Below, in pieces: positions 16,028 to 34,266 of a stretch of DNA of 39,416 nucleotides; within the stretch, counting starts at the first letter, position 1, and each line of letters opens with the position of its first letter. The stretch is taken from contig JAPLYY010000069.1 of NCBI GenBank assembly GCA_026395315.1, positions 1-39,416 on the forward strand, written 5' to 3'. Made by a program: the position numbers and the translations under genes. The notes beneath the pieces were generated by a model. It was not told the DNA's origin. It saw only the letters and a program-made list of their open reading frames with translations, and did no database searches. The stretch comes from Candidatus Shapirobacteria bacterium (GTDB lineage: Bacteria; Patescibacteriota; Microgenomatia; UBA12405).

Positions 16028-16062
16028 GATTTTAATCTGTTGAATTGTTTTGATCCCTCAAT

Positions 16063-16178
16063 TCCGGCCGCGACCTATTTTCAGTCAAGTTTACACGAGA
16101 CCTACCGTCAGCGCTGAAACGTTTCACTTCTCTGTTCGGAATGGGAAAAGGTGGTTCCATCTCGCTCTCACGACCGGA
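16063..16178 (-). rRNA. rrf: 5S ribosomal RNA.
   Basis: The reverse complement contains CCCATTCCGAACAGAGAAGTGAAAC and a closing helix TCCGGTCG/CGCGGCCGGA. An additional 12-bp flanking stem pairs 16051-16062 with 16179-16190. Confidence 0.9.
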
Positions 16179-16249
16179 ATTGAAGGATCAATCGAAAAAT
16201 ATAAATATATTTGAAATTAAAATAACTTTAAAGTCTTAAAAAACTTATT

Positions 16250-16309
16250 CCTCCCTGCCCTGCCTGCCCGCCTCTGGAGGGTCAAGGGAAGGGTTGGGGA
16301 AGGGTTTTT
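16250..16309 (+). repeat. Family A-like element in the 23S-5S spacer.
   Basis: Sequence cctccctgccctgcctgcccgcctctggagggtcaagggaagggttggggaagggttttt. Its 28-nt tail is identical to that of 25745-25782. Confidence 0.8.
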
Positions 16310-16310
16310 A

Positions 16311-16329
16311 GCGACTAAATTGAGTTGCC
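16311..16329 (-). promoter_or_regulatory. 23S processing stem, 3' arm.
   Basis: gcgactaaattgagttgcc is perfectly complementary (19/19) to 19669-19687. Confidence 0.8.
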
Positions 16330-18116: not shown

Positions 18117-18444
18117 GATGGACAACACCAAAAAGACATTATTTTTTTATTACTCTTACTATCGGCATTCTTCCCCACGCTGACTCAACTATAAAATCAA
18201 ACCCCGCATAAACCGCACTCCACGCAGCTGCTGTTTCTAAACTATTATGTCCGACCACGCCGACAACCGTTCCAATAGTTACTCCCCTAATTACAGACAA
18301 CGCGATGCGTTTTCTGATTGGCTCAACCTTTCCAGGTCTTTTGGTAACGTCAACGGCATAATTCGCTAGCCTTAATATTTCGGTCATAATAGTATTATTA
18401 TAACATAAACAATTTTTTTTAATATCTTCTTAGTGTTGTCCATC
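18117..18444 (-). other. Intervening sequence/expansion in 23S helix 45, closed by a 12-bp stem.
   Basis: GATGGACAACAC (18117-18128) pairs with GTGTTGTCCATC (18433-18444). In rRNA sense it lies just upstream of the conserved GGTAGGAGAGCGTT. The interior is A/T-rich and unlike rRNA. Confidence 0.8.
18139..18387 (-). CDS. 82-aa ORF inside the 23S helix-45 insertion, with a small hydrophobic Gly-zipper-like segment.
   Basis: ATG start, same strand as the rRNA, with TATAAT 9 nt upstream (18397-18402). The sequence contains GVTIGTVVGVVG. No known family was recognised. Confidence 0.4.
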   Translation of the reverse strand: MTEILRLANYAVDVTKRPGKVEPIRKRIALSVIRGVTIGTVVGVVGHNSLETAAAWSAVYAGFDFIVESAWGRMPIVRVIKK

Positions 18445-19157
18445 TATCCTCCAACTTCGGCACTAGGTTTGAGCCTCCTTACATTTTAGGCGCAAATTAC
18501 CGACCCCGATTGCTCGGAGTCGAACAGTGAGCTATTACGCTTTCTTTAAAGGATGGCTGCTTCTGAGCCAACCTCCTGTCTGTCTTAGGTAATCCACTAC
18601 CTTTCCCACTTAACCTAGATTTAGAGGCCTTAGATGAGAGTCTGGGGTCTTTCCCTTTTGCCCGGCCAGCTTAGCCCGGTCGGACTGACTGCCTGACTAG
18701 AAATTACGGTATTCGGAGTTTAGTTAAATGCCTGAGCTTGCGCTCAAAACATTCATCCAGTAGCTCTACCCCCGTAATTCACCATCAGACGCTATACCTA
18801 TATATATTTCGGAGAGAGCCAGCTATTCCCACTTTCGATTGGCATATTACCCCTAACCACAAGTCATCGGACAGATTTGCAGCTCTGATCCGTACGGGCC
18901 TCGTACCGACTTCCATCGGTATTCACCCTGCTCATGGTTAGCTCAAGTGGCTTCGGGTCATCCCCGCTTACCTATTCGCACTATTCGTACTCGCTTTCGC
19001 TACGCCTCCACCGGCTTAGCCGGATTAGACTCGGTAAACAAGAACACTCGCGGACTCATTCTTCAATAGGCACGACATCATTCTCGACTTACGTCGGAAC
19101 TCTGTCTGTTTGTTAGCAAATGGTTTCAGATCTATTTCATTCTGCGATTTGCAGTGT

Positions 19158-19196
<39 letters not shown>

Positions 19197-19668
19197 CGCT
19201 GAAGTATTTAGTCTTGGAGCTTGGTCGCCCCGGATTCCCAGGACATTTCACGTGGATCCTGGTACTTAGGTATCTAGCCGATCTTTACAGGTATTTCAAA
19301 TACGGGACTCTCACCCTCTTTGGTAGTCCATTCCAGAACTTTTTTCTATACTTTCAAGACTTTACGCCAGACCCTGCAACACCCCGATAAATCGGGGTTT
19401 AGACTGTTCCCTGTTCGCTCACCGCTACTAAGGGAATCTCATACGATTTCTTTTCCTCCGGGTACTGAGATGTTTCACTTCCCCGGCTTACCCACCTCGC
19501 CTTGCGGCGGGTTCAGTCTGATTGCTCAGACCGGTATTTCTACATTCGGAATCGGTCGGATCACCGTTTGTTGGCAACTCCCCGACCTGTTTCGCCACCT
19601 ACTGCGTCCTTCTTCGGCTTCAGCAGCCTAGGCATCCACCATTTGCTTTAAATAAATTTCTTGATTAT

Positions 19669-19687
19669 GGCAACTCAATTTAGTCGC
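19669..19687 (-). promoter_or_regulatory. 23S processing stem, 5' arm.
   Basis: ggcaactcaatttagtcgc is complementary to 16311-16329. Confidence 0.8.
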
Positions 19688-19889
19688 CAATATTATGTTA
19701 AAGCCGGCCTATTAAACAGGCTTTAACTTTTAATTTCAATATCATTTGACACGGACAAAAGTGTCATAGATATTTATATTCTCGATTCAACAGATTGTTA
19801 AAGTGTGACCCCGACTTTCATCGGGACAAGAATTAATTTCCGACCGGAACTACTCTTCGTAATTCGTAATTCGTAATTTTTAATTCTCT

Positions 19890-19966
19890 TGGTGGACCTG
19901 GGGAGATTCGAACTCCCGACCTCCTCATTGCAAATGAGGCGCTCTAACCAACTAAGCCACAGGCCC
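19890..19966 (-). tRNA. tRNA-Ala (anticodon UGC) with an encoded CCA end.
   Basis: The reverse complement is GGGCCTGTGGCTTAGTTGGTTAGAGCGCCTCATTTGCAATGAGGAGGTCGGGAGTTCGAATCTCCCCAGGTCCACCA. It folds as a cloverleaf and has the G3:U70 pair. Confidence 0.95.
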
Positions 19967-19995
19967 AAGCCTGCACAGACCCTATTTAAATGTGC

Positions 19996-20020
19996 AAAAA
20001 AATAGCCGCGACTCGCGGCC
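19996..20020 (-). terminator. Strong intrinsic-terminator-like hairpin, 30 nt upstream of tRNA-Ala.
   Basis: The minus strand reads GCCGCG-AGT-CGCGGC followed by TATTTTTTTG. Confidence 0.65.
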
Positions 20021-20099
20021 AAAAGCTCTATCTCTCCTAGGGTTCACTTAAACCTAATTTTCCCATTCCGATAAGAAGCTTTCAGCATTAAGTGGAAGT

Positions 20100-20128
20100 A
20101 TTCTACCTAATCTGAATCTGTAAATCAA
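20100..20128 (-). promoter_or_regulatory. Sigma70-type promoter upstream of the tRNA-Ala/23S/5S operon.
   Basis: The minus strand reads TTGATT, a 17-nt spacer, then TAGAAT. Confidence 0.6.
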
Positions 20129-20168
20129 CGACTTAATGTTTCGTTTTTAAAGTAGGGGTTTAGCTCGC

Positions 20169-20816
20169 CTAAACCCGTCTTTTTGATTTTACCCACTCCA
20201 TCATAATCGGCACCACTGAAATCAATACAATCACCACCACCACTAATTCAAAATTAGCTTTGACAAACGGTATGTTTCCAAAAAAGTAACCTCCAAATGT
20301 AAATAATGTCACCCACAATAAACCTCCGACCGCATTATAAGAAATAAATTTGCCGTAATGCATTTTCCCCACTCCCGCCACAAACGGCGCAAATGTTCTC
20401 ACTATCGGCACAAATCTCGCCAAAACAATCGCTATCCCGCCATGTTTATCGTAAAACGCTTGGGCTTTATCCAAATATTCTTTTTTTAATAACCCCGATT
20501 TCATCGTAAAAGCTTTCGGACCAATAAAATGACCGATCCAGTAATTAACCGTATCGCCGACAAACGCCGCTAGCACCATCAAAAACCATAATAAATATAT
20601 ATTAAAGCTCCCTTGGCTCGCCGTAGCGCCAGCGAAGGCGGCGGCCGCAAACAACAAACTGTCCCCCGGTAAAAACGGTGTCACTACCAACCCGGTTTCC
20701 ATAAATATCACAAACCACAACATCGCATACGACCACCCGCCAAAATTGGCAATCACCAAGGCTAAGTTCTTATCAATATGCAGAAACAAATCTATTAGCG
20801 TCTTAATAAAATTCAT
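20169..20816 (-). CDS. DedA family membrane protein.
   Basis: 215 aa and multi-TM, with the DedA-type segments PFLPGDSLLFAAAAF and ARFVPIVRTFAPFVAG. TATACT lies 5 nt upstream of the ATG. Confidence 0.9.
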   Translation of the reverse strand: MNFIKTLIDLFLHIDKNLALVIANFGGWSYAMLWFVIFMETGLVVTPFLPGDSLLFAAAAFAGATASQGSFNIYLLWFLMVLAAFVGDTVNYWIGHFIGPKAFTMKSGLLKKEYLDKAQAFYDKHGGIAIVLARFVPIVRTFAPFVAGVGKMHYGKFISYNAVGGLLWVTLFTFGGYFFGNIPFVKANFELVVVVIVLISVVPIMMEWVKSKRRV

Positions 20817-20838
20817 TTCATAGTATATCTAAAAATTC

Positions 20839-20880
20839 GGCTCCCCTGTCAAGGGGAGCTCCCGTAGGGTGAGGGGTTTT
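20839..20880 (+). repeat. Family A element, variable-hairpin subtype.
   Basis: Sequence ggctcccctgtcaaggggag-CTCCCgtaGGGTG-aggggtttt. It overlaps the GH18 stop codon by 2 nt. Confidence 0.9.
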
Positions 20881-22102
20881 AATTCATTTTTTCTTTCACC
20901 AGCTTCCACAAATCCTTATCTTCCCCCTCATATCCCAACGCCCAAAATCCTACTCCCCCCACCTGCGATTGTTTGGCCAGATCCAACTTCGCTCCCATAC
21001 TGTCCATATTTTCAAAATATGCTTGGTAAGTTCTGGTTATTGGTACTGGTACACTCTGCCACCCATATTTTTTTGTTTTCTTATTCAACACCCTGACCAG
21101 CTTCTGAGTAGACTCCTCGTTTTTAAAACTAACCCACGGCGTCATACTCAGTTCATCCCAATTCTGAACAAAATCAGTAAAATTAGCATATGTCCCGTCC
21201 GCCATTCTCTGCTTTGACTCATTCCAGCTCACCATCCGGCTCCAGTTCTCAACTACTTTCGATTCAAACACTGCCTCAGTTGTCCGCCATTGGTATCCAT
21301 AAAGTGGATATGCCAATACTATTTTGTTTTTTGGTAACTTAGCCTCAATTATCTTTTGGGTTACTTCGGTAATATTTCTTTCTCCGGGCACTGAATTTAT
21401 CGGTGCCACCGGCCCGGCAAAATCCGAACTTGGCTGATGAAAGTCATAGGCCATCACTATAACTTTATCTACCACATTGGCCAACTTTGTTAATCCTACC
21501 GAATCTCCTTTTATCACTGTGTTGGCAAACACATCAATACTGATTTCTCCCCCTACTTCTTTCTTAAATTCATCCAAAAACCCCAAAAAATCATCACTGA
21601 GTACTCTCACCGGATCGCCCATATATTCAAAGTCGATATTAATCCCGTCATAATCCGCCACTTGAGAAATTGCCTTAGTTTCGTCTAAAAGAGTTTTTCT
21701 GGCCGATCCCGACGACACCAAACTATCGATTAATTTAGTGTCAAACAGTTTGATTCCTAAAATGTTCTTACCCCCGTTCTTTTTTATTGTTGTCTTCATT
21801 GTCAGGTAATTCTCATCGTTTATTTTTTTGCCTTGAACATCCCAAATTAAATTACCACTGCTCCCTACATCCACCCCTAAAAAAATCAACTGATCTAAAA
21901 TTCCGTCGTAATTTTGCGTTTTCCCTACCATCCACGTTGGCAAAAACCCGATTATCTCCGGAGTATCTCTCTTAAACACTCCAAACTTTTTCTCTCCCAC
22001 CCAGGGACTGATCAAATTGACTTTTTTTTGCCAAATTATTACCCCCAATCCCATTAAAATTAATAACACCACCCCTATTCCTAACCACTTCCACCACACC
22101 AT
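20879..22102 (-). CDS. Glycoside hydrolase family 18 (chitinase-like) protein with an N-terminal membrane anchor.
   Basis: 407 aa with the catalytic-type motif YDGINIDFEY (DxxDxDxE) and an N-terminal TM segment WLGIGVVLLILMGLGVII. Confidence 0.85.
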   Translation of the reverse strand: MVWWKWLGIGVVLLILMGLGVIIWQKKVNLISPWVGEKKFGVFKRDTPEIIGFLPTWMVGKTQNYDGILDQLIFLGVDVGSSGNLIWDVQGKKINDENYLTMKTTIKKNGGKNILGIKLFDTKLIDSLVSSGSARKTLLDETKAISQVADYDGINIDFEYMGDPVRVLSDDFLGFLDEFKKEVGGEISIDVFANTVIKGDSVGLTKLANVVDKVIVMAYDFHQPSSDFAGPVAPINSVPGERNITEVTQKIIEAKLPKNKIVLAYPLYGYQWRTTEAVFESKVVENWSRMVSWNESKQRMADGTYANFTDFVQNWDELSMTPWVSFKNEESTQKLVRVLNKKTKKYGWQSVPVPITRTYQAYFENMDSMGAKLDLAKQSQVGGVGFWALGYEGEDKDLWKLVKEKMN

Positions 22103-22227
22103 TAACTCTTAATTACCTTCTCCAAGGCAAATTTTATCGTCCGAAACACGTTCCCAATTGAACCGAAGGCAATCAACCCCATTGCCGCCACCATTCCCAT
22201 TATCCTGACTAATGTCCACTTCTTCAT
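22102..22227 (-). CDS. Possible 41-aa membrane peptide, below the ORF-track cutoff.
   Basis: Hand translation gives MKKWTLVRIMGMVAAMGLIAFGSIGNVFRTIKFALEKVIKS. Its TAA overlaps the GH18 ATG (TAATG). Confidence 0.35.
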   Translation of the reverse strand: MKKWTLVRIMGMVAAMGLIAFGSIGNVFRTIKFALEKVIKS

Positions 22228-22256
22228 AACAATATTCTACATTAATAATAAATTTA

Positions 22257-22298
22257 GGTGGGCCTGCCCGCCGTAGTTCCGATTTATCGGAACGAAGG
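22257..22298 (+). repeat. Degenerate A-like element abutting the tRNA-Ile 3' end.
   Basis: Sequence ggtgggcctgcccgccgtag-TTCCGATttaTCGGAA-cgaagg. It resembles 12004-12059. Confidence 0.45.
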
Positions 22299-22372
22299 TG
22301 GGTGATAATAGACTCGAACTATTGACCCCCGTCTTATCAGGACGGTGCTCTAACCAACTGAGCTAATCACCC
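22299..22372 (-). tRNA. tRNA-Ile (anticodon GAU), CCA not encoded.
   Basis: The reverse complement is GGGTGATTAGCTCAGTTGGTTAGAGCACCGTCCTGATAAGACGGGGGTCAATAGTTCGAGTCTATTATCACCCA, which folds as a cloverleaf. Confidence 0.95.
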
Positions 22373-22396: not shown

Positions 22397-23413
22397 TCAA
22401 AATCTTCTCAGAAACATTTCTACTACCTTTCTGGCCACATTAATTCCCGTCGACTTCTCAAATCCCTGAAATTGGCACTGCCGGTTCACCTCCAAAATAA
22501 AACTGTCATAGTCCTCTTCTTTATTGGGGTTTGGACCCTTCATAATATCTACTCCACAGTAATCCAACCCACACACTTTCGCTACCTTTTCGGCTAATCG
22601 TTTATCATCCTCCGACAATTCCCATTTCTCGACCGCTCCTCCCAGTGAAAAATTACTTCTAAATTCATCTCCCACTGCCGATCTTTTCATCCCTCCAATC
22701 GCCTTACCATCTAATACTATTACTCTGATGTCCCACCTGGTTGGTAAATATTTCTGCCACAAAAACATTCCCACATTTTTTTCATTAATTTTTCTAACAA
22801 ATTTCTCCAATTCTTCAAAATTATCAAACTTTTTCACCGATTTTCCTTGGTACCCTTTTTCGTGTTTAGCAATCACCGGCCATCCCAAACCGTAAAAATC
22901 ATCACGTGCGCTACCTGCCCTGTCAAGTCGAAGATCCGCCATGGAGGAGGAAGGTGCCCGAAGGGCGGAAGGGTTTGTTCCAAGAATTTGCTCCTTTGTA
23001 TAAAAAATCTTTGTTGGTACCACCGGAATATCGTTCTTTAAAAATACTCCATGTTGCGAAATCTTCCCCATCCTCGACCATTTCAAATATCCTTCGTGGT
23101 TGGCACAGAACACTGTATGGGCAGACCCATGTGTCTGCCCCTCCAATATTTGAATCAATAAATTTCTCCCCTCGGTATATTTTCCGCTGATCGTCCCTGC
23201 CACCCGAAACCAAATACCCAAAGTATTTTCCGCTGTAATTTCTTCTCCTCTGACAAATGCCCGTGGTTTCCCGTTATTCAAATCAAAGGTCAATTCCCGA
23301 TAAAGTGCCCTGTTAATCTCTACTCCCAATTTTTCTGCCTCCGTTGCCAACCTCTCCACCTCAAATTGGCTTTGTTTCAACGACATCGTAAAAGTGATTA
23401 TTTTTTTATTCAT
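22397..23413 (-). CDS. RimK-like ATP-grasp ligase (paralog A) with two in-frame repeat insertions.
   Basis: ATP-grasp core: WPVIAKHEKGYQGKSVKK, WDIRVIVLDGKAIGGMKR, GLDYCGVDIM, FILEVNRQCQFQGF. Confidence 0.85.
   Translation of the reverse strand: MNKKIITFTMSLKQSQFEVERLATEAEKLGVEINRALYRELTFDLNNGKPRAFVRGEEITAENTLGIWFRVAGTISGKYTEGRNLLIQILEGQTHGSAHTVFCANHEGYLKWSRMGKISQHGVFLKNDIPVVPTKIFYTKEQILGTNPSALRAPSSSMADLRLDRAGSARDDFYGLGWPVIAKHEKGYQGKSVKKFDNFEELEKFVRKINEKNVGMFLWQKYLPTRWDIRVIVLDGKAIGGMKRSAVGDEFRSNFSLGGAVEKWELSEDDKRLAEKVAKVCGLDYCGVDIMKGPNPNKEEDYDSFILEVNRQCQFQGFEKSTGINVARKVVEMFLRRF
22913..22976 (+). repeat. Family B element inside the paralog A CDS.
   Basis: Sequence acctgccctgtcaagtcgaagatccgccatggaggaggaaggt-GCCCgaaGGGC-ggaagggttt. 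It is read as NPSALRAPSSSMADLRLDRAG. Confidence 0.9.
23114..23146 (+). repeat. Family C palindromic element inside the paralog A CDS.
   Basis: Sequence tgtatGGGCAGACccatgtGTCTGCCCctccaa. It is read as LEGQTHGSAHT. Confidence 0.85.
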
Positions 23414-23415
23414 AA

Positions 23416-23463
23416 AAACCCTTTGTCCTTCGATAAACTCAGGACATTTCCCTTCAAGAAGGG
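23416..23463 (-). repeat. Family A-like element, reverse orientation.
   Basis: Sequence aaaccctt-TGTCCttcgataaactcaGGACA-tttCCCTTCaaGAAGGG. Confidence 0.6.
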
Positions 23464-23479
23464 CAATTTAAATAATAAT

Positions 23480-24604
23480 TTATAAACCTCCCTTTTGAAG
23501 GGAGGATTCCGACTTTACGTCGGAAGGTGGGTTTAGTTCTGCTAAAAATTTAACTATTTCTGCCGGCACATCAATCCCCGTCGCTTTCATAAAACCCCTA
23601 AACTGCGGCCCCTTATTTACTTCTAAAATCACATAATCCTTCGGATCATTAGACATTCCTTCTGTGGCTCCCCTGTCAAGGGGAGCTGGCCGTAGGCCTG
23701 AGGGGTTTTTTGCCATTACATCTACCCCCGCCACCGATAATCCACACACCTCTGCCGCCTTCACCGTTAATTGTTTTATATCTTCCGGTAAATCAGCAAT
23801 TTCCACCTTTCCTCCCGTCGAATAATTGTTTCTGAATTCCCCCGCCAGTTGGCGGGTCCTCTTCATCACCCCCAACACTTTCTTTCCCAATATCAACACC
23901 CGATAATCCCCATCGTTGGGAATATATTCCTGCAGCATATATCTTTTCCCTTCTTCCGTTTCCGATTTTCGTAACTTAATTACCAATTTTTCTAATTCAT
24001 TTAAATTATCGGCTTTATATACTCTAGTCCCACGATCACCACCTGAACCTTTTATAATTATTGGAAAAGTAAAGTAGGGGTTTGGCTTGCCCAAACCCTC
24101 ACTCATAATTTCATAAAGATACCAAAGACTCCCATATGTGCTTTTCGGCACCTCAATCCCCGCTTTTTTTAACGCCAACATCTGCCACGCCTTACATGCC
24201 ATACTCGGCTTCCCACCTAACACCAACGGATCCACCACAATCGGTCCTTTCGTGGCTCCCCTGTCAAGGGGAGCTGGTCCGCCAGCTGGCGGACCTGAGG
24301 GGTTTAATCCGCCAACGATAAGGTCCACTTCTTCCCAATGTTTCCCTGTTGTTCTAAAAAATAAGACATCATAGTCATTTATATCCAGCCATCCCTCATT
24401 TTTGATTGTATGGACAGACCGGTGTGTCTGTCCCTCCACATCACTCAAATTACCTCGGATTTTGACCTTTTGTTCTTGAGTATCAAATGTCACTCTGTTA
24501 TAAGACACCAAATCCAATCTTACTCCCATCTTTTTCGCCGCTTTCTTAATCAACACCAAATGTTGGCTTATTTTTCCCCCAAAAAACAATGCAATTTTAT
24601 TCAT
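23480..24604 (-). CDS. RimK-like ATP-grasp ligase (paralog B) with four repeat-derived segments.
   Basis: ATP-grasp core: FPIIIKGSGGDRGTRVYK, GDYRVLILGKKVLGVMKR, GLSVAGVDVM, VILEVNKGPQFRGF. Confidence 0.85.
   Translation of the reverse strand: MNKIALFFGGKISQHLVLIKKAAKKMGVRLDLVSYNRVTFDTQEQKVKIRGNLSDVEGQTHRSVHTIKNEGWLDINDYDVLFFRTTGKHWEEVDLIVGGLNPSGPPAGGPAPLDRGATKGPIVVDPLVLGGKPSMACKAWQMLALKKAGIEVPKSTYGSLWYLYEIMSEGLGKPNPYFTFPIIIKGSGGDRGTRVYKADNLNELEKLVIKLRKSETEEGKRYMLQEYIPNDGDYRVLILGKKVLGVMKRTRQLAGEFRNNYSTGGKVEIADLPEDIKQLTVKAAEVCGLSVAGVDVMAKNPSGLRPAPLDRGATEGMSNDPKDYVILEVNKGPQFRGFMKATGIDVPAEIVKFLAELNPPSDVKSESSLQKGGL
23487..23534 (+). repeat. Family A element, variable-hairpin subtype with a TTTG loop.
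   Basis: Sequence CCTCCCTtttgAAGGGAGGat-TCCGACtttacGTCGGA-aggtgggttt. It supplies the C-terminus (NPPSDVKSESSLQKGGL) and stop of paralog B. Confidence 0.85.
23666..23708 (+). repeat. Family A element inside the paralog B CDS.
   Basis: Identical to 12620-12662. It is read as NPSGLRPAPLDRGAT. Confidence 0.9.
24254..24305 (+). repeat. Family A element inside the paralog B CDS.
   Basis: Sequence ggctcccctgtcaaggggagct-GGTCCGCCagctGGCGGACC-tgaggggttt. It is read as NPSGPPAGGPAPLDRGAT. Confidence 0.9.
24407..24438 (+). repeat. Family C palindromic element inside the paralog B CDS.
   Basis: Sequence tgtatGGACAGACcggtgtGTCTGTCCctcca. It is read as VEGQTHRSVHT. Confidence 0.85.
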
Positions 24605-24605
24605 A

Positions 24606-26069
24606 TTATTTATTTATTTTCATAATTTTTAAGGCTCCCCTGTCAAGGGGAGCTCCCGCCTTAGCGGGTGAGGGGTTTGATTTTGCGCTAACTAAAAACC
24701 CCTCTAGATCTTTTCTCCCTAACAAAAATTTCGTTCTCAATTTATCTCTATCCGCCACATTCACCGCCGTCATCACCCTTCTTCCTTTTAGCCAGAAACT
24801 GACCCCGATTACCGGTCTGTCTTTGTGCTTACCCAAACTCGACCGATAATGCCGATAATACAATACTCTATTTTCTCCCAACAGACCCAATTTCTCTGCT
24901 AAGACTCTGTCAATCGAGCTTCGATACGCTCCGGTATCAATTTTGGCCCTCACCTCCACCACTCGGTGTTTACCTTGCTTGATAATCGGGCTTTTCTGCA
25001 AATCAGGCTTAAATCCTTTGGGAATTTTCATTCTGATTATTTCAATCGGTTGGACTGTTTTATTTTTTTCCTTCTCTTCTACCTTCTCAAAAAACTTTTC
25101 CCCGAATAAATATTTCGCCACTGAAATGGCATGATCCGCACTTCTCACCTCAATATCCTCCACCTTATCCATTCGTGTCTTTAGCCCTGCTTTATTACAA
25201 ATCTGAATTGACAATCCCGGTCTGGCGTTCACTTCCAACACCAGCGGCCCTTTTTCCTTGTCCAACACTACATCCACTCCCAAAAACCCCAACCCGGAAA
25301 CTGCTTTTTGACAATTAATTGCTGTTTCCATTATTTCCCGCCACATTGGAATTTTTATTCCGTTCACCTTAATTGGTTTCTTTCTCCCAAAATCATAAAT
25401 TCGCTTCACCTCTTCATCTTTTCCTTCGATTCCAAAAGTTGTTATCCCTGTTGCCAAGTCAATTCCTAAACCATAGGCTCCCTGTTGTAGATTAGCTTTA
25501 CCGCCGCTTTTCTCTGTCGGAATCCTTAGCATGGCCATCACCGGAATTTTATTAAATACAATTACCCGAATATCCGGCGTCCCCGAATGGGTATAACTAA
25601 AGAACATCGGGTGAATCTTAATTCTTTCCTCCACGATTACCGCATCCAGCATCCCGTGCAGACTATACTTTCCTGCCAAAATCTCCTGACAATGTCTTTT
25701 TAAGTCATCTAAACTAATTGTCTTCCCGTTCATCATTTGCCACCCCTCTGCCCTGTCAAGGGAAGGGTTGGGGAAGGGTTTTGTCTTTTTTCTTATTATT
25801 AGTATCCCTTCTCCCCCATATCCTGTCACCGGCTTCACCACAAAATTCCCTTCTAGTCCATTCCAATTAAAATTTTCCACCCCGTTAACTGTTTTAAACC
25901 GTTCAATCAGCTTTGGTACTCCTATCCCCGCCTTCCCTAAAATTCTTTTTGTCTTATATTTACTATCGGCTATAGCTCTCCCCTCAACATTGTTTTTCCT
26001 TAAATACTCCCGGTTTCTCTGGTTCTTCGTCAAAAACTGCCGGTATTGTTTTAAATTTATTCCGAACAT
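24606..26069 (-). CDS. ATP-grasp (alpha-L-glutamate-ligase-like) protein fused to a C-terminal retropepsin-like (DUF785/RimB-type) domain.
   Basis: ATP-grasp motifs are NFVVKPVTGYGGEGILII and FLGVDVVLDKEKGPLVLEVNARPGLS. The C-terminal domain has AKIDTGAYRSSID (D-T-G-A). The start was moved to the ATG at 26069, because the longer ORF begins inside a repeat and overlaps the upstream gene. Confidence 0.8.
   Translation of the reverse strand: MFGINLKQYRQFLTKNQRNREYLRKNNVEGRAIADSKYKTKRILGKAGIGVPKLIERFKTVNGVENFNWNGLEGNFVVKPVTGYGGEGILIIRKKTKPFPNPSLDRAEGWQMMNGKTISLDDLKRHCQEILAGKYSLHGMLDAVIVEERIKIHPMFFSYTHSGTPDIRVIVFNKIPVMAMLRIPTEKSGGKANLQQGAYGLGIDLATGITTFGIEGKDEEVKRIYDFGRKKPIKVNGIKIPMWREIMETAINCQKAVSGLGFLGVDVVLDKEKGPLVLEVNARPGLSIQICNKAGLKTRMDKVEDIEVRSADHAISVAKYLFGEKFFEKVEEKEKNKTVQPIEIIRMKIPKGFKPDLQKSPIIKQGKHRVVEVRAKIDTGAYRSSIDRVLAEKLGLLGENRVLYYRHYRSSLGKHKDRPVIGVSFWLKGRRVMTAVNVADRDKLRTKFLLGRKDLEGFLVSAKSNPSPAKAGAPLDRGALKIMKINK
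24633..24678 (+). repeat. Family A element at the 3' end of the ATP-grasp/retropepsin CDS.
   Basis: Sequence ggctcccctgtcaaggggagct-CCCGCcttaGCGGG-tgaggggttt. It is read as NPSPAKAGAPLDRGAL, 8 codons before the stop. Confidence 0.9.
25745..25782 (+). repeat. Family A element, G-tract-tail subtype, inside the ATP-grasp/retropepsin CDS.
   Basis: Sequence cctctgccctgtcaagggaagggttggggaagggtttt. It is read as KPFPNPSLDRAEG. Confidence 0.9.
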
Positions 26070-26086
26070 AATTGTATTTTCATTAT

Positions 26087-26126
26087 GGCCCTCCCTGTCA
26101 AGGGAGGGGTCTTGGGGGTGGGTTTT
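26087..26126 (+). repeat. Family A element, G-tract-tail subtype.
   Basis: Sequence ggCCCTCCCTgtcaAGGGAGGGgtcttgggggtgggtttt. It overlaps the stop of 26125..26958 by 2 nt. Confidence 0.85.
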
Positions 26127-26958
26127 AACCTTTTTTCCGTATCGCCTTTGCAAATCTTTTTATCTCCACTAATCTAATCCCCGTATAACTTCCCACCAGC
26201 AGATTAACTACTAGTACTACTATTAATGTCAATTCCGGCTGCCCGATCACCCACTCCTGTACTTCCCTTACTCCCATCAACAACGCTCCTGCCACTGCTA
26301 AAACCAAAGTTCCTAAAGTTAAAGAAAATGCCTCTTTTCTACTTTTAGCCAATTGGGTTCTGGAAAACTCTTCTACTAATAGGACCATAAATAACACCGG
26401 AAAAATCGATATCTTACTCAGATCGAACAATTCAAGATAGGACGTCCCGATCATTAATCCGAAAGTCCCTACTGAAATAAACAATAAATTAATCGATCTT
26501 GCCGGCCAAAAATGTAATTTGAATCTTTTTAGCAGGTAATTGCTCACAATCGACACTATCAAAACGGTGGCAAACAATAGTACTCCCCCCAATATCCCCG
26601 TCGCCAAAAACACCACCGCAATCATTGTCGGAATAAATATGCCGTAACCCGACAATCCCACCATATAATGTAATACCGACACAATCGTGGCCACCAACGG
26701 CAACATTAACAACAATACAATTGTATTCGACGCTACTCCCCGATCAATTCCGATCCGTATCAATTTTTGAATCGAATTAAATCCGTTCCATTTCATCGTT
26801 TCCGCTTCCATTAAATTATTACTCTTTGTCAATAATGTCGGCGTAACCACGTTTGACGTGGTCGGTGTCACCACTATCTGTTTCACCGCTATCACGTCAA
26901 TTTTTGCCCAAACTAACCACCCCAAACACACCAATATTAAAATTATATATTTTTTCAT
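26125..26958 (-). CDS. 7-TM membrane protein of the type associated with ATP-grasp/retropepsin clusters (7TM_transglut-like).
   Basis: 277 aa with a signal/anchor and about 7 helices. GIFIPTMIA, LLVEEFSRT and the terminal GSYTGIRLVEIKRF resemble that family from memory. Confidence 0.65.
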   Translation of the reverse strand: MKKYIILILVCLGWLVWAKIDVIAVKQIVVTPTTSNVVTPTLLTKSNNLMEAETMKWNGFNSIQKLIRIGIDRGVASNTIVLLLMLPLVATIVSVLHYMVGLSGYGIFIPTMIAVVFLATGILGGVLLFATVLIVSIVSNYLLKRFKLHFWPARSINLLFISVGTFGLMIGTSYLELFDLSKISIFPVLFMVLLVEEFSRTQLAKSRKEAFSLTLGTLVLAVAGALLMGVREVQEWVIGQPELTLIVVLVVNLLVGSYTGIRLVEIKRFAKAIRKKG

Positions 26959-27041
26959 TGAATTGTGGCGTATTATAACACTCCTTTTGCCTTTCTTTCC
27001 CCTTGTTTAATTTTTTACTCACATTTAGTATACTTCCTTTA

Positions 27042-27377
27042 ATGAATCGTCTCCTAGCTGATGTTATTATTGGCAATACTCCAATTAATGGTAATGAAAC
27101 TCTTGCCCAAACTTACCCCAATATTGGTACTCTCGTTGGTGTTATCCTCAAAAACTCTCTGGTCATCATTGGCATCATTTTACTTGGCCTTTTGATTTAT
27201 GGCGGTCTTCTCTTTATAATCAATGCAGGCAGTAGTGACAGCAAAAAATTAGCCCAGGCTCAAACTATCTTGACTGACGCCGTCATTGGCTTTGTTGTTG
27301 TTCTCCTTGCCTTCATCGTTATTCAAATTATTCAAACAATTACCGGCTTAAATATTCTTAATAACACCACTTTATAA
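27042..27377 (+). CDS. VirB2/TrbC-like type IV secretion pilin paralog 1.
   Basis: Two hydrophobic helices flank AGSSDSKKLAQAQTILTDAVIG. ATG 27042 was preferred over TTG 27003, which coincides with a -35-like TTGTTT. Confidence 0.7.
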   Translation: MNRLLADVIIGNTPINGNETLAQTYPNIGTLVGVILKNSLVIIGIILLGLLIYGGLLFIINAGSSDSKKLAQAQTILTDAVIGFVVVLLAFIVIQIIQTITGLNILNNTTL

Positions 27378-27379
27378 TT

Positions 27380-27709
27380 ATGTTTGCTGGCATCTTCGGA
27401 GACATCACCAACCCCACCCAATACACCGGTACCAACGGTGAGGGTCTTTTTAAATTTATCAGTCAAATATTTCAACTCACCGGCATTGTCGCCGGCATTT
27501 ATTTTGCCGTAAATCTCATTTTAGCCGGTTACATGTACTTGTCTGCCAACGGCGATATTAAAAAAACCGAACAAGCTTGGAATAAAATCTGGCAAAGCAT
27601 TTTAGGGATGGTCATTGTTGCCTCCGCTTTCGTTCTGGCTTCCGTTATTGGCAATCTTCTCGGTATCGACATTATCCATCCCGTCATTAAAGGACCAAAT
27701 GACCTATAA
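27380..27709 (+). CDS. T4SS pilin paralog 2.
   Basis: ITNPTQY N-terminus and two TM helices flanking SANGDIKKTEQAWNKIWQSILG. Confidence 0.75.
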   Translation: MFAGIFGDITNPTQYTGTNGEGLFKFISQIFQLTGIVAGIYFAVNLILAGYMYLSANGDIKKTEQAWNKIWQSILGMVIVASAFVLASVIGNLLGIDIIHPVIKGPNDL

Positions 27710-28058
27710 CCTACTAGCTGTCGTCTACCCTCCTCTCATCGGCCCGGGCATCCAGCCCACCGCCAACCCCGTCGGTGTTCTCGAAACCATTATCAGCACC
27801 ATTGTCGGTGTTTTAACTATTGTCGCCGTCATTTTCTTTGCTATCCAGATTATCTTTGCCGGTTACTCTTTCATCAGTTCTGAAGGTGATGCCAAAAAGA
27901 TGGAAGAAGCTCGTAAAAAACTTACCGAAGGCGTTTTGGGAGTCTTTATTGTTGTCATTGCTCTCGGTGCCGCTGCCCTCATTGGCCGTCTCACCGGTCT
28001 CGGTGGCAATGTCCTCGATCTCCAATCTTTATTAAGTAAACTAAAAATTCAACCATGA
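27699..28058 (+). CDS. T4SS pilin paralog 3.
   Basis: An internal ATG was chosen (11-nt overlap with paralog 2). Two TM helices flank SSEGDAKKMEEARKKLTEGVLG. Confidence 0.7.
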   Translation: MTYNLLAVVYPPLIGPGIQPTANPVGVLETIISTIVGVLTIVAVIFFAIQIIFAGYSFISSEGDAKKMEEARKKLTEGVLGVFIVVIALGAAALIGRLTGLGGNVLDLQSLLSKLKIQP

Positions 28059-28402
28059 AATCTTTCATCCAGCCAGTCTACGCCGCTATTACCAACCCCG
28101 CTCTTACCAATCCTTCCGCCCAATCATCTCCCAACTATGTTAATACCGTCCTTCAAAATGTCTTTAGCCTTTTTATGGTGTTAGGTGTCATTTATTTTAT
28201 TTGGCACTTTGTTTTTGCCGGTTATCACTATATGGGTGCTCAAGGTGATTCCAAAAAAATCGAAATCGCTCAAACTGAGCTTACCAATGCCATGATTGGT
28301 CTTGGCGTTGTCTTCGTCGTCTTTGCCATTCTTAAACTTATCGGCACTGTCGCCGGTATCAAAGGTCTTGACACTCTTCAATTTACTTTACCTTCTTTAT
28401 AA
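28055..28402 (+). CDS. T4SS pilin paralog 4.
   Basis: ATGA start/stop overlap with paralog 3. Signal-like MKSFIQPVYA, then ITNPALTNP and GAQGDSKKIEIAQTELTNAMIG. Confidence 0.8.
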   Translation: MKSFIQPVYAAITNPALTNPSAQSSPNYVNTVLQNVFSLFMVLGVIYFIWHFVFAGYHYMGAQGDSKKIEIAQTELTNAMIGLGVVFVVFAILKLIGTVAGIKGLDTLQFTLPSL

Positions 28403-28448
28403 AACACGCTATAATTCACTAATAAATTATTATTTAACCTAATACTCA

Positions 28449-28805
28449 ATGAAAAACCTCCTTTCCAACTTGGTTGGCCCCGTTTATGCTCAAAACATCA
28501 ATCTTACCCCTCAGGGTAATTTTAGTAACCTTGGCAACCTTACCATCCCCGGTATCATTTCCGGTGCCATTTCCCTGATCATGCTGGTTGTTGCTTTAGT
28601 CTTCTTTTTTATCCTCATCTTGGGTGGTCTTCGCTGGATTACTTCTGAAGGTGATGAAAAAGCTGTTGGTGCCGCCCGCAATCAAATTACCAACGGTTTA
28701 ATTGGTTTAGCCATCGTCTTTGCCGCTTTCGCTATCATGAAGCTCATTGGCACCGTCTTTGGTGTTGATATTCTTGGTGGACTTGTCATTCCCACCTTCA
28801 AATAA
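28449..28805 (+). CDS. T4SS pilin paralog 5.
   Basis: Signal-like MKNLLSNLVGPVYA and two TM helices flanking TSEGDEKAVGAARNQITNGLIG. Confidence 0.8.
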   Translation: MKNLLSNLVGPVYAQNINLTPQGNFSNLGNLTIPGIISGAISLIMLVVALVFFFILILGGLRWITSEGDEKAVGAARNQITNGLIGLAIVFAAFAIMKLIGTVFGVDILGGLVIPTFK

Positions 28806-28825
28806 TTCTTTTTTATCTCTTCGTT

Positions 28826-28856
28826 GGGGCGGACCGATGTGTCCGCCCTTTTCGTT
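28826..28856 (+). terminator. Family C hairpin acting as a possible intrinsic terminator or attenuator inside the pilin operon.
   Basis: Sequence gGGGCGGACcgatgtGTCCGCCCttttcgtt. Confidence 0.5.
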
Positions 28857-28874
28857 TATATAGTATAATCTGTC

Positions 28875-29276
28875 ATGCGCGCCCTTCGTAATTTCTTTTC
28901 TTTTTTATTCATACTTCTTACTTCATATTTCATAAATCCCCTTGTCGTTCACGCTCAAACCGATTGGGCTGCCCAAAATTCCAAATGTGTCGCCAACGGT
29001 GACGTTGCTACCATCCAAGGCATCGAATGTTTATTTTTTAATGTTCTCCAAGTTATAGTCCTATTAGCTGGCCTGGCTTTCTTCTTTATGTTTATTTCCG
29101 GTGGTTTTCAATATCTTCTTAGTCAGGGTGATTCCAAAAAAGTCGCCGCCTCCGGCTCCACCCTTACCATGGCTTTTATGGGCCTGATTGGCGTTATTGG
29201 TTCCTGGTTGATCCTTCGTCTCATTGAAAATTTCACCGGCCTCACTCTCACCCATTTTATAATCCCCTCAAATTAA
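28875..29276 (+). CDS. T4SS pilin paralog 6 (longer, with 2 Cys).
   Basis: Signal peptide ending VHA and two TM helices flanking LSQGDSKKVAASGSTLTMAFMG. TATAAT lies 5 nt upstream of the ATG. Confidence 0.75.
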   Translation: MRALRNFFSFLFILLTSYFINPLVVHAQTDWAAQNSKCVANGDVATIQGIECLFFNVLQVIVLLAGLAFFFMFISGGFQYLLSQGDSKKVAASGSTLTMAFMGLIGVIGSWLILRLIENFTGLTLTHFIIPSN

Positions 29277-29278
29277 TC

Positions 29279-30526
29279 ATGTCTCTTCGTCCTATTTTTA
29301 TTTTTTGTTTTATTCTTACTTCATATTTCATAAATCATATTTCTGTTTTTGCTGCCGCTGTTCCTCCGGTTATTCCCGATTCAATCAATCCCGACCAGCT
29401 TTTCACCGGTTCCTTTGATCCCCAATACCCCAACAAAGATTTTATTCCTAATAACCCTTCCGGTGTCACCTGTGAATACCAAGTCACCGCCGAACAGGAC
29501 GTTGGTGGGAGTTCTTCGGGTACTATTACTATTAATAAAGATCTTTCCAACCAAAAAACCGACTTTGACAACCGTCTTTTGGGTAAAAATCTCTACGACC
29601 TTACTCCCTGCGATCCCGGTGCCGGTGACTATAACGATTGTCTGTCCCAACGCAATAATTCCATGAATACCGACAATCTTTACGGTGCCGCTAGTCCAGT
29701 CCAGCGCCAACTTCCCCAAGCCGATAAAAATAAACTTCTTTGTTCCCGCTGGCATTCCGGCATCCTTAGTGGTCGTCATGTTGCTGACACCGATGAGCGT
29801 GTTGGCTGTTACTGTGGTGGCGACAGTAGCTCTATCCCTTCCGGTGCCTGTCCTGCCAATTGTCGCGAAGTTTATTTTTCCGAATTAGCTTTGTTTAACA
29901 CTAGTTTTTGTGATCTCCCTGCCGATATTGCTGCTTACTACAATTGCGGTTCAGGCAATTGTCCTTTTTTCAAAAGAGAACCCAAAGCCAAAAATCTTCC
30001 CCAGATTTCTTCTGTCGTCGCTTCCCAACTTATGAAAAATGTTTCCATCGTTCCCAAGGGCTCAGTTGCTACTTCCATTACCCAAACAGATAAAAATAAA
30101 ACCAGCCTTGGTGTTCTCCCTTTTCTTATGGCCCCTTCCTCCAACCAAAGCGATACCGCTATCAAAACTGTCTTTCCTGCTTCGGCTCAACCTAAAAACG
30201 ACAATCCCTCTTGTTCTCCAGTCTCCAAACCCTCCGGCCCTGATGAATACAAATTCGATTTAATTGCCGAAATTCTCGCTCTTGTTACTGGTAATAAAGC
30301 CAGCGGTGATGCTCCCATTAAACAAGAGTTCTCATCTGGCACTATCCAGGGTCTCAATTCCGCCTCGTCCCTCAATACTCTTGTCCCCCAGTCCCAGCTC
30401 GATCTTAGTCCTCCCACCAAAACCGAATATTCGGTCACTGGAGATAAAAACGATACTATTTTAAATCCCTCTACCAACGTCAATCAGTTTCGCTTAAATT
30501 TAACTCCGGCCTCCTGGCAGCAGTAA
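29279..30526 (+). CDS. Secreted Cys-rich protein (415 aa), function unknown.
   Basis: The signal peptide shares a 24-nt identical coding stretch with the previous gene. About 15 Cys are clustered at aa 65-230, and the C-terminal half is Ser/Pro/Asn-rich. Confidence 0.7.
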   Translation: MSLRPIFIFCFILTSYFINHISVFAAAVPPVIPDSINPDQLFTGSFDPQYPNKDFIPNNPSGVTCEYQVTAEQDVGGSSSGTITINKDLSNQKTDFDNRLLGKNLYDLTPCDPGAGDYNDCLSQRNNSMNTDNLYGAASPVQRQLPQADKNKLLCSRWHSGILSGRHVADTDERVGCYCGGDSSSIPSGACPANCREVYFSELALFNTSFCDLPADIAAYYNCGSGNCPFFKREPKAKNLPQISSVVASQLMKNVSIVPKGSVATSITQTDKNKTSLGVLPFLMAPSSNQSDTAIKTVFPASAQPKNDNPSCSPVSKPSGPDEYKFDLIAEILALVTGNKASGDAPIKQEFSSGTIQGLNSASSLNTLVPQSQLDLSPPTKTEYSVTGDKNDTILNPSTNVNQFRLNLTPASWQQ

Positions 30527-30547
30527 TTAATATGTTAAAATCTCTTG

Positions 30548-32026
30548 ATGCTTAAGTGGTTAAAAATCAATCCTAAATTCTTTTTTTATGGCCTTCTGGT
30601 TCTGACTTGTCTTTTTACTTTTTCCATTTTTGCGGATGAAGTTCCTCTCTTAAAACAAAAACAGGATGCCATTTCTCAAGGCGGCAATCAAGAAGCCTGG
30701 CTTAACGAAGCCCTTAAAAGTAATGTCGTCTCTGGATTAAACAGTCTTGTCGGTCAAATTCCAGATAATATTATTAATGGCCAGGCCCCTCCGGCTTCAT
30801 GGATCCCAGGTGGAGCTATTGGTGTAGCCACTCGAGCCGTTGCTATGGCTTTCACACCACCCGCATCCGGTATTCAATATGTTGCTCAAACTTGGGACAA
30901 CTTTTTAGGTAAACCGGCTTATGCCCAAACCAATACTGGTTTTGCTGGCTTACAACCAATCTTACCTATTTGGCGCGGTTTTCGTAACGTTGTTTATATT
31001 TTAGCTTCCCTGGTTTTTATTATTATCGGTATCATGATCATGCTTCGGGTCAAAATTTCTCCTCAAGCTGTCATTACTGTCCAAAATGCCATTCCTCAAT
31101 TAATTACCGCTTTAGTTCTGGTTACCTTCTCCTATGCCATCGCTGGACTATTAATCGACTTAATGAACTTTGTTCAGGGAGCAATGCTCTCAATTCTTTT
31201 TACTGCTAATGGTAAGGCTCTAACTGCCGACCTCCTGTCACCCAATCTGCTATCCCGATCAGATTATTCCACTTTAAATAATCTTAATTTAATAACTACT
31301 TTAACCACTGCTACTAAAAACATCCCCCTCTATGCTGTCACTGCTATCGGTGCAATTATTGGCGGTGTTCTTGGATTTTTTGCTTTTGCAGTCCCAGTTG
31401 TTGGAGAGCTTTCAATTCTGGGTGGAATTGGCCTTGGAGCTGCATTATTTACTCTCGTGGTCGCCATTCTTCTTTTCATCAATATCCTCAAATTTTTCTT
31501 CGGCTTGATCAAAGTATATATCAATGTTATCTTAAAAATTGTTCTCGCCCCGTTAGAAATTGGTCTTGGAGTCTTTCCGGGGTCCAAAGCCAACTTTTCC
31601 TCATGGCTTCTAGAACTTGTCGGTAATCTGGCAGTATTTCCCGTTTCTATATTCTTTATTGTCCTTATAAATTACATCGCTGAATTAAGTGGTGGTGGCA
31701 CTCTCTGGGCACCAGGTATGATTAATGCTGGTAATTTTATTGGATTTATCATTGCTTTTGGCGGCTTTTTAATTCTTCCCAAAATTCCCGAAATGATCCC
31801 CCAGGTCTTCTTCAATCTCAAACCATCACCTTGGGGCACAGCCGCTACTGAAGCCTTCGGTCAAATGTACAAACCTATCGGAAGCGCTGCTAATCAAAAA
31901 GTACACAATTTAGCTGGAAAAGCATTTGCTTCCAATGTAGCGACGGGCGGCGCACAAACAACAAACAGTAATGCTGGAAAGTTCATGGCAGATGTCATGG
32001 AACTACTGGGAATGGCCAGGCACTAA
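30548..32026 (+). CDS. Polytopic membrane protein, possibly VirB6/TrbL-like.
   Basis: About 492 aa with a signal/anchor and at least 6 long hydrophobic helices. It lies directly downstream of the pilin array. The functional call rests on context only. Confidence 0.55.
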   Translation: MLKWLKINPKFFFYGLLVLTCLFTFSIFADEVPLLKQKQDAISQGGNQEAWLNEALKSNVVSGLNSLVGQIPDNIINGQAPPASWIPGGAIGVATRAVAMAFTPPASGIQYVAQTWDNFLGKPAYAQTNTGFAGLQPILPIWRGFRNVVYILASLVFIIIGIMIMLRVKISPQAVITVQNAIPQLITALVLVTFSYAIAGLLIDLMNFVQGAMLSILFTANGKALTADLLSPNLLSRSDYSTLNNLNLITTLTTATKNIPLYAVTAIGAIIGGVLGFFAFAVPVVGELSILGGIGLGAALFTLVVAILLFINILKFFFGLIKVYINVILKIVLAPLEIGLGVFPGSKANFSSWLLELVGNLAVFPVSIFFIVLINYIAELSGGGTLWAPGMINAGNFIGFIIAFGGFLILPKIPEMIPQVFFNLKPSPWGTAATEAFGQMYKPIGSAANQKVHNLAGKAFASNVATGGAQTTNSNAGKFMADVMELLGMARH

Positions 32027-32050
32027 ACCAACAGATTCCCCACCTTAGTT

Positions 32051-34147: not shown

Positions 34148-34208
34148 ATGCTGGAATTATACCAAATCACCCTCATATATCCCATAATTAAAAACATACC
34201 TTATCTTC

Positions 34209-34254: not shown

Positions 34255-34266
34255 GTATACTTCTTT

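Follow-up and report, generated by a model that had tools for sequence, protein, structure and literature searches.

What is the function of a gene cluster in which a membrane protein is encoded side by side with three ATP-grasp ligases and a retropepsin-like protease? This question is raised by contig JAPLYY010000069.1, a 39,416-nt stretch of DNA (hereafter, the window) whose source, judged from the best relatives of its proteins, is an ultra-small bacterium of the Microgenomates group of the Candidate Phyla Radiation (CPR), the matches being named Candidatus Shapirobacteria or Woesebacteria. Four minus-strand open reading frames (ORFs), arranged head-to-tail within positions 22397-26958, encode a seven-transmembrane (7TM) protein, an ATP-grasp ligase fused to a domain with the D-T-G-A motif, and two RimK paralogs, B and A; all were recovered at the coordinates first given for them in a preliminary description, which had called them co-directional and tightly packed. 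We propose, with a probability of about one half, that this cluster is a membrane-docked write-and-trim machine for an acidic oligopeptide or tail, which it would extend and cut back, and that it is the CPR counterpart of the RloB/RloC/RloA system of Pseudomonas merged with RimK-type ligases.

Domain composition of the encoded proteins

The fusion protein is the most conserved product of the neighborhood: its orthologs (453-498 aa) are 71-89% identical, compared with about 56% identity for the 7TM protein. Its N-terminal part matches PF14397 (ATPgrasp_ST) over model positions 1-277 of 278 (E 3.5e-59, 200.7 bits; cut-off 31.4), and by far its best NCBIfam match is TIGR02291, 'alpha-L-glutamate ligase-like' (E 1.5e-77), with a score of 260.7 bits that lies under the curated cut-off of 314.2. 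The ortholog alignment reveals invariant K79, E147-E148-R149, D266, and E279-x-N281 in the ligase domain, and the usual ATP-grasp motifs are retained in all three ligases, both RimK paralogs included: a Lys on the beta-strand that precedes the Gly-rich loop, the Asp of G-V-D, and the E-x-N of L-E-V-N. The ligase part was modeled confidently by AlphaFold2 (AF2; predicted local distance difference test, pLDDT, 80-90), and the best Foldseek matches of the model were ArgX, RimK, LysX, Ddl, and cyanophycin synthetase, of which ArgX, LysX, and RimK all act on protein C-termini. A single-sequence search of the fusion protein against PDB sequences gave no matches; profiles alone succeeded.

The C-terminal part of the fusion protein is borderline in Pfam (PF05618, the DUF785/RimB-like family; 27.3 bits against a cut-off of 27). 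None of 45 orthologs departs from D-T-G-A or from L-L-G-R-K-D, the other hallmark of retropepsins, and a profile built from diverse relatives of this domain matches the RloA crystal structures 9G59 (E 5e-8) and 9G58 (E 1e-7), followed by Legionella 2PMA, Ddi1, the EIAV protease, and ApRick. AF2 did not model this part reliably (pLDDT about 30), a likely consequence of a shallow alignment and of obligate dimerization of the domain, and the retropepsin fold is therefore argued from sequence evidence. The domain is strongly basic (net charge +18, pI 10.8), and an acidic substrate would fit such a charge. The fusion joins an RloC-type ligase, predicted to be catalytically intact, to a very basic retropepsin domain for which the same is predicted. 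Among distant fusions, the catalytic Asp or the DTG motif is replaced in P0124, P0125, P0129, P0137, P0175, P0203, and P0213 (by VATG, VNTG, INTG, INLA, IDLK, or LDPT), which suggests protease-dead domains kept for binding.

Both RimK-like proteins match PF08443 (cut-off 21), paralog B with E 2e-24 and 86.7 bits and paralog A with E 3.1e-27 and 95.8 bits. Their scores against TIGR00768 (B: E 5.9e-34, 117.7 bits; A: E 2.7e-35, 122.1 bits) are under the curated cut-off of 143.4, and those against PRK10446, the equivalog of the ribosomal protein S6 ligase, are 52-55 bits, far under its cut-off of 331. The two paralogs are 29% identical to each other; the best PDB relative of A is Escherichia coli RimK (E 2.7e-13), and those of B are RimK and LysX. 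In a subclade of relatives (loci L043, L044, L047, L049, L050, L053, L056, L058, L061-L063, L065, L066, L070, L080, and L082), we observed a single divergent RimK-like gene, 33-41% identical to paralog B. The product of this gene lacks the Y-S-x-G-G segment of R-N-N-Y-S-x-G-G (aligned for L044 and L080), and its ligase activity may be altered or lost.

The 7TM protein matches PF14402, 7TM_transglut (E 3.8e-26, 92.5 bits; cut-off 25), and the NCBIfam RloB model aligns to it over the C-terminal 7TM part only (model positions 312-505 of 508). Pfam found no Transglut_core domain in this protein, and the 120 close relatives listed are all 244-329 aa long and carry PF14402 alone, the transglutaminase domain being present in none. 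According to an alignment of 32 orthologs of 245-330 aa, the protein consists of a signal peptide, a variable Pro/Thr-rich extracytoplasmic linker, a conserved KWNGFNS motif, and seven helices with conserved polar residues (H-Y, H-F-W-P-x-R, S-I-F-P, and E-E-F-x-R-T-Q-L-x-K-S), and its basic C-terminal helix contains seven Lys/Arg residues. By the positive-inside rule, this layout of helices and charges places the C-terminus in the cytoplasm and the N-terminal stub outside. The AF2 model has a pLDDT of 67, and Foldseek found no PDB match to it better than E 1.6. On the whole, profile searches supported the assignments of the preliminary description to 7TM_transglut, ATP-grasp/RimK, and DUF785; the last one is borderline in Pfam and is backed by the profile and the motifs.

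Conservation, natural fusions, and relation to described systems

To describe the distribution of the cluster, 85 related loci were fetched and the window proteins were mapped onto each of them. Since the genome scan used clade-specific peptide patterns, these loci over-represent Shapirobacteria, and the wider distribution rests on a search of cluster representatives and on two distant loci. The genes are clustered far beyond chance, and the cluster is conserved in every related locus examined. The 7TM gene is located directly upstream of the fusion gene in all 78 evaluable loci, and the retropepsin domain follows residue 345 of the ligase in 79 of 79 evaluable relatives, so the co-conservation expected by the preliminary description is borne out, distant CPR lineages included. 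RimK-like genes are found downstream of the fusion gene in 51 of 52 loci, with two genes in 35 loci, one in 16, and none in the remaining locus. They are therefore a common but variable accessory outside the invariant core: of the proposed arrangement of a fusion with two RimK paralogs, the fusion held in all evaluable relatives, and the fixed pair of RimK genes did not. The loci without RimK genes (L077 and L078) retain the protease domain, and for this reason we assign the protease to the RloC-type ligase and not to RimK.

The distant CPR lineages repeat the same core. A Jacksonbacteria contig encodes a 7TM protein with a PKD domain, then the fusion protein, then a GNAT protein; in the second lineage, a PKD-7TM protein is followed by a fusion with a MATCAP domain, two ATP-grasp genes, a second MATCAP gene, and a third ATP-grasp gene. 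MATCAP is a metallo-carboxypeptidase known from tubulin detyrosination. Hence, the core consists of the 7TM protein and the ligase-protease, to which further ligases and peptidases are added repeatedly. By its predicted architectures, the 7TM protein has an interchangeable part on its outer side (transglutaminase-like, PKD, or a bare linker).

Natural fusions provide further information about the partners. An exhaustive search for the fusion family among 1.84 billion cluster representatives revealed 1614 related families with E<=1e-3; at E<=1e-30, there were 356 clusters (50% identity). In a Pfam census of the best 83 of 150 representatives, ATPgrasp_ST was found in all 83 and PF05618 in at least 28, and the architecture ligase-retropepsin-MATCAP was found in 32 of these 83 nearest representatives. 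Other architectures are (i) ligase, retropepsin, and a second ATP-grasp domain (P0158), (ii) ligase, retropepsin, and YdjC, (iii) 7TM and ligase (P0239), and (iv) transglutaminase, 7TM, and TIGR02291 ligase (P0256). In P0256, the N-terminal part gives a match to RloB, and the ligase part, with 330.9 bits, exceeds the TIGR02291 cut-off. In both 7TM-ligase fusions (P0256 and P0239), the ligase is attached to the C-terminus of the 7TM module, on the cytoplasmic side, and the joining of ligases to peptidases argues that both activities belong to one pathway. A genomic link between 7TM, ATP-grasp, and DUF785 genes reportedly goes back to the comparative genomics of amidoligases by Iyer et al. (2009).

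The closest described system is RloABC, and the RimBK system is related. RloABC, the retropepsin-like osmotic stress tolerance operon of Pseudomonas, was characterized genetically and structurally in mBio in 2025 (PMC12239564); its protease RloA (crystal structures 9G58 and 9G59) has a positively charged channel and cleaves poly-glutamate, when either rloB or rloC is deleted, the defects seen in the triple rloA protease mutant are suppressed, and the phenotypes concern the envelope, namely cell shape, ampicillin sensitivity, and osmotic tolerance (PMC12239564). This suppression means that the protease removes or limits a product of the 7TM protein and the ligase. Thus, the preliminary statement that the role of the 7TM-linked version is not established holds for the substrate, whereas the version is no longer wholly uncharacterized (PMC12239564). 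Both systems co-encode a 7TM_transglut protein, a TIGR02291/PF14397 ligase, and a DUF785 retropepsin with a DTG motif and a basic surface; RloA is also the best solved relative of the protease-domain profile. RloA cleaves glutamate-rich peptides and has a role in hypo-osmotic tolerance, and the +18 charge of the cluster's protease domain would be consistent with a similar activity. RloC is a probable TIGR02291 member, as judged from the natural fusion of an RloB-like part to a TIGR02291 ligase.

There are also differences from RloABC. The 7TM protein of the cluster lacks the periplasmic inactive transglutaminase domain and has a signal peptide and a Pro/Thr-rich stub instead. RloA is a stand-alone, secreted protein, whereas the protease of the cluster has no signal peptide and is fused to the C-terminus of a cytosolic ligase, which implies that it acts inside the cell. 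The cluster adds one or two RimK-family ligases, and its host is a CPR bacterium; according to the survey in the Rlo study, 96% of RloB sequence matches are in Proteobacteria (PMC12239564).

In the RimABK/RimK-RimB system of S6 glutamylation, RimK extends the C-terminus of S6 with alpha-L-glutamates and synthesizes poly-alpha-Glu, and RimB, a retropepsin that acts as a dimer, cleaves poly-Glu both terminally and internally (PMC11957791); RimB and RimK are encoded by neighboring genes in Pseudomonas (PMC12239564). The cluster resembles this system in that RimK-family ligases adjoin a cytoplasmic retropepsin-like protease. It differs in the fusion of the protease to an RloC-type ligase, in the presence of a 7TM partner, in the lack of RimA, and in having two divergent RimK paralogs below the family cut-off; the S6 gene rpsF was not found in the window. 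Judged by its predicted domains, the cluster is not a member of RloABC or RimBK as defined, being a fused, cytosolic, multi-ligase variant without the transglutaminase domain. No description of the CPR form of the system was found in the literature searched.

A looser analogy is provided by the tubulin code, in which ligases (TTL/TTLL) add residues to an acidic C-terminal tail and peptidases (MATCAP) remove them. Close relatives of the fusion protein carry MATCAP; the fusion of the window lacks it, the cluster is bacterial and membrane-linked, and no tubulin-like substrate is known. Several other candidates were considered and rejected. The LysX/ArgX-LysW pathway involves the best structural matches of the ligase domain, RimK-family relatives acting on a protein C-terminus, but no gene for a LysW-like carrier and no lysine or arginine pathway genes are present nearby. 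For a graspetide/microviridin RiPP (a peptide that the ribosome synthesizes and that is modified after translation), whose precursor gene would adjoin a macrocyclizing ATP-grasp enzyme, the cluster has no small conserved ORF, and the RiPP ATP-grasp models match weakly (E 6e-4 to 4e-3). In cyanophycin synthetase, a protein of about 870 aa, an ATP-grasp domain is combined with a Mur-ligase-like one; here, the similarity is restricted to the ATP-grasp region (22-32 bits against a cut-off of 850). None of the four proteins matched the PADLOC models of anti-phage defense.

Proposed function and alternative explanations

Under the proposed mechanism, (i) the ATP-grasp enzymes would use ATP to add amino acids singly, most likely alpha-linked glutamate or another acidic residue, (ii) either a growing oligopeptide or a protein tail would serve as the acceptor, through its carboxyl end and on the cytoplasmic side of the 7TM protein, (iii) the RimK paralogs would start, lengthen, or diversify the chain, (iv) the fused retropepsin, acting as a homodimer, would cut the acidic chain and so limit its length or release it, and (v) the 7TM protein would pass the product across the membrane or couple the enzymes to the state of the envelope. 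The product would then be a multi-step peptide made at the membrane, as the preliminary description had suggested.

Several observations weigh against this mechanism. In the window, neither an acceptor nor a substrate was found: no ORF of at least 40 aa has an acidic C-terminus, and no precursor-peptide gene or small conserved ORF was found in the cluster. The amino acid that is used cannot be read from the sequence. Because their scores are below the TIGR02291 and TIGR00768 cut-offs, the ligases are family relatives and not certified equivalents. The retropepsin domain lacks a confident structure model, and proteolysis does not extend to every member of the wider family, since the catalytic Asp is missing from some distant relatives. 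The 7TM model, of moderate confidence and without a solved structural relative, gives no clue as to transport or sensing, so transport by this protein is a guess. Finally, the name of PF14397 ('sugar-transfer associated') and the YdjC fusion point to glycan-linked substrates.

The last two facts also favor an alternative in which amino acids or short peptides are attached by the enzymes to a glycopolymer of the envelope or to a lipid-linked precursor of the cell wall, and this precursor is flipped or positioned by the 7TM protein. Ddl and an archaeal pseudomurein ATP-grasp enzyme are among the fold and HMM neighbors of the ligase, a GT2 glycosyltransferase gene lies near the Jacksonbacteria locus, conserved GH18 and DedA/VTT genes lie downstream of the cluster, and the Rlo phenotypes are envelope-related. 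We consider glycan decoration possible but doubtful: the obligate partners of the ligase are peptidases (retropepsin and MATCAP), which implies chain peptide bonds and not single-residue decoration, the best structural matches of the ligase act on protein C-termini, and the GH18 and DedA genes are located at a variable distance and are missing in distant loci. It is unlikely, in our estimate, that the locus comprises two independent systems, an Rlo-like pair of 7TM protein and ligase-protease and a set of ordinary S6-glutamylating RimK enzymes that use the fused retropepsin as their RimB. RimK is the best solved relative of both paralogs, RimB adjoins RimK in Pseudomonas, a locus may have two RimK genes, one, or none, and the cluster abuts tRNA and rRNA genes. 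However, loci devoid of RimK genes (L077 and L078) still have the retropepsin on the ATPgrasp_ST ligase, the core is followed by extra ATP-grasp genes in very distant CPR lineages too and is fused to one in P0158, and both paralogs score below the RimK-family cut-off.

The neighboring pilin genes suggest another substrate. In 58 of 64 evaluable loci, the 7TM gene stands head-to-head with a block of six genes of the PF18895 'T4SS pilin' family, and in L079 the block is rearranged but still nearby; the products share a G-D-x-K-K loop between two helices. The system might mature these divergent VirB2/TrbC-like pilins by trimming, tailing, or joining them at the membrane. Nevertheless, the block is absent from the most distant core-bearing loci (L076, L077, L083-L085, L086, and L088), the C-termini of the pilins are not acidic, and synteny among related genomes can explain the conservation, which makes pilin maturation very unlikely. 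The preliminary link to the pilin cluster is accordingly valid within the lineage and fails in the distant core-bearing relatives. A further reading, which we regard as speculative and quite unlikely, is a CPR counterpart of the tubulin code: membrane-anchored ligases of different specificities and an endopeptidase, with the MATCAP carboxypeptidase in relatives, would write and erase amino-acid tails on an envelope or secretion-apparatus protein; the neighboring VirB2-like pilins might be the target, and the tails would tune the attachment to, or the exchange with, host cells. It is hardly credible that the genes are decaying, repeat-riddled relics without function. Although seven repeat insertions lie within the three ligase genes, every insertion is a multiple of three and leaves the frame open, the insertions fall in loops that vary or hold other inserts in orthologs, and the catalytic motifs are intact. 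With these alternatives weighed, the write-and-trim machine acting on an acidic chain remains our preferred explanation.

Gene layout, repeats, and significance of the locus

The coordinates of the cluster genes, their domains, and the main repeat family are listed in Table 1. The preliminary description started the fusion gene at TTG 26153, which would give a protein of 515 aa. Its orthologs begin with MFGINLKQY in the alignment, and the start is therefore corrected to ATG 26069; as a consequence, the fusion gene and the 7TM gene do not overlap. From the 7TM gene to paralog A, the intergenic gaps are 55, 1, and 66 nt, whereas the corresponding gaps in the closest relative, whose fusion protein is 89% identical, are 1, 1, and 8-35 nt; the 55- and 66-nt gaps mostly represent 57- and 51-nt repeat insertions absent from this relative. 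Divergence from the pilin-like genes across 45-85 nt had been proposed, and the measured gap between the 7TM gene and the first pilin-like ORF is 44 nt (start TTG 27003) or 83 nt (ATG 27042), depending on the start codon. A tRNA-Ile gene lies 24 nt downstream of the cluster. A scan of the cluster against shuffled expectation revealed no terminator-like sites above background and no promoters above expectation, the top promoter matches being TTGACA loops of repeats. The four genes are most simply read as one operon.

Table 1. Positions of the cluster genes, protein domains, and CCCTGTCAAGGG-type repeats in the window
Feature	Position	Strand	Remarks
7TM membrane protein	26125..26958	-	277 aa; PF14402; RloB model, 7TM part
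Spacer, 7TM gene to fusion gene	26070..26124	-	57-nt repeat insertion (26074-26130), absent in closest relative
ATP-grasp ligase + retropepsin-like protease fusion	24606..26069	-	487 aa; PF14397, TIGR02291
Predicted ATPgrasp_ST (TIGR02291/RloC-type) ligase domain	25158..26021	-	Residues ~17-304; Pfam match, AF2, Foldseek
Predicted retropepsin-like (RimB/RloA/DUF785-type) aspartic protease domain	24681..25034	-	Residues 346-463; profile matches, PF05618
Catalytic D-T-G-A motif	24927..24938	-	Invariant in 10- and 45-sequence alignments
RimK-family ligase, paralog B	23480..24604	-	374 aa; PF08443; three in-frame repeat insertions
RimK-family ligase, paralog A	22397..23413	-	338 aa; PF08443; two in-frame repeat insertions
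CCCTGTCAAGGG-type repeats, first part	4641-4732, 6028-6074, 6469-6509, 8706-8747, 12617-12661, 12805-12859, 14177-14218, 20836-20880		
CCCTGTCAAGGG-type repeats, second part	22896-22981, 23649-23713, 24245-24313, 24624-24676, 25745-25786, 26074-26130, 39282-39326		

The repeats belong to a lineage-specific, GC-rich hairpin family with the 12-nt core CCCTGTCAAGGG, which is present in 14 exact copies in the window, in 8 copies in 1.0 Mb of related loci, and in none in the closest relative. The main type consists of a variable hairpin with compensatory changes beside an invariant 8-bp hairpin; one subtype contains four G-tracts. Intergenic copies directly follow stop codons and point in the same direction as the gene upstream. 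In the ligase genes, the insert lengths relative to the closest relative are, for example, 18, 51, 54, 21, and 84 nt, and the encoded peptides (e.g., PLDRGA and GQTHxSxHT) lie in loops that are variable or insert-bearing in orthologs; a RadA-like gene also carries in-frame repeats of this type. Since the repeat-bearing genes stay open and keep their catalytic motifs, the cluster appears to be under continued selection. The repeats recall the in-frame palindromic elements of Rickettsia, and no report of hairpin repeats of this kind in CPR was found.

The loop of the repeat reads TTGACA, a perfect -35 hexamer, on the gene strand, and the two best promoter-like matches of the cluster (22898-22926 and 25732-25759) both represent copies of the repeat within coding sequence. 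Another hairpin repeat, GGGCAGAC-n5-GTCTGCCC, was found at 5009-5040, 5154-5176, 13820-13851, 23113-23145, 24407-24438, and 28827-28849. It is inserted in frame at apparently equivalent sites of both RimK paralogs (EGQTHGSAHTV and EGQTHRSVHTI) and in two unrelated genes; an ortholog from L030 has a related insert at the same site.

Downstream of the cluster, at 16062-22372, the genes for tRNA-Ile(GAU) and tRNA-Ala(UGC), the usual spacer tRNAs of an rRNA operon, are separated by genes for a GH18 hydrolase and a DedA/VTT protein. The split tRNA pair is followed by the 23S and 5S rRNA genes, no 16S rRNA gene is present upstream, and the ligase cluster occupies the place where it would be; the split pair is conserved downstream of the cluster in L001, L004, L007, L020, L026, L027, L038, L064, and L069. 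The 23S rRNA gene (16370-19662) is 3293 nt long, compared with 2925 nt for the model, i.e. it has about 370 extra bases, and a 29-nt inverted repeat (18113-18141 and 18420-18448) flanks about 280 nt inside it; no Rfam intron family matched this gene. On the other side of the cluster, the six paralogous small two-helix PF18895 proteins, each with the G-D-x-K-K loop, are encoded at 27003-30526, and no VirB4- or VirD4-type ATPase was detected near them. They are followed at 30545-35940 by secreted proteins of 415 and 493 aa and a 698-aa protein, all three without a known domain, and by a DUF6909 protein, and at 36022-39246 by an FtsH protease gene interrupted in its AAA domain by a LAGLIDADG homing endonuclease intein. 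At the other end of the window, a 1276-aa protein (819-4649, and 5-931) contains diverged repeats about 150-500 nt apart with a G-N-V-G-I-G-T-T-x-P-x-Y-K-L motif in common at the DNA level; this protein may be a surface fiber.

In Pseudomonas, RloB/RloC/RloA influences cell shape, the formation of biofilms, and antibiotic tolerance. For work on the substrate and chemistry of this system, its CPR version is a simpler starting point, with ligase and protease in one cytoplasmic polypeptide, a bare 7TM module, and extra ligases in the operon, and its natural fusions indicate which parts touch. Since an ATP-consuming system of four genes is maintained at 71-89% identity in genomes of about 1 Mb, it is probably important for its host; in that case, a group regarded as biosynthetically poor would gain a tailing or non-ribosomal peptide activity.

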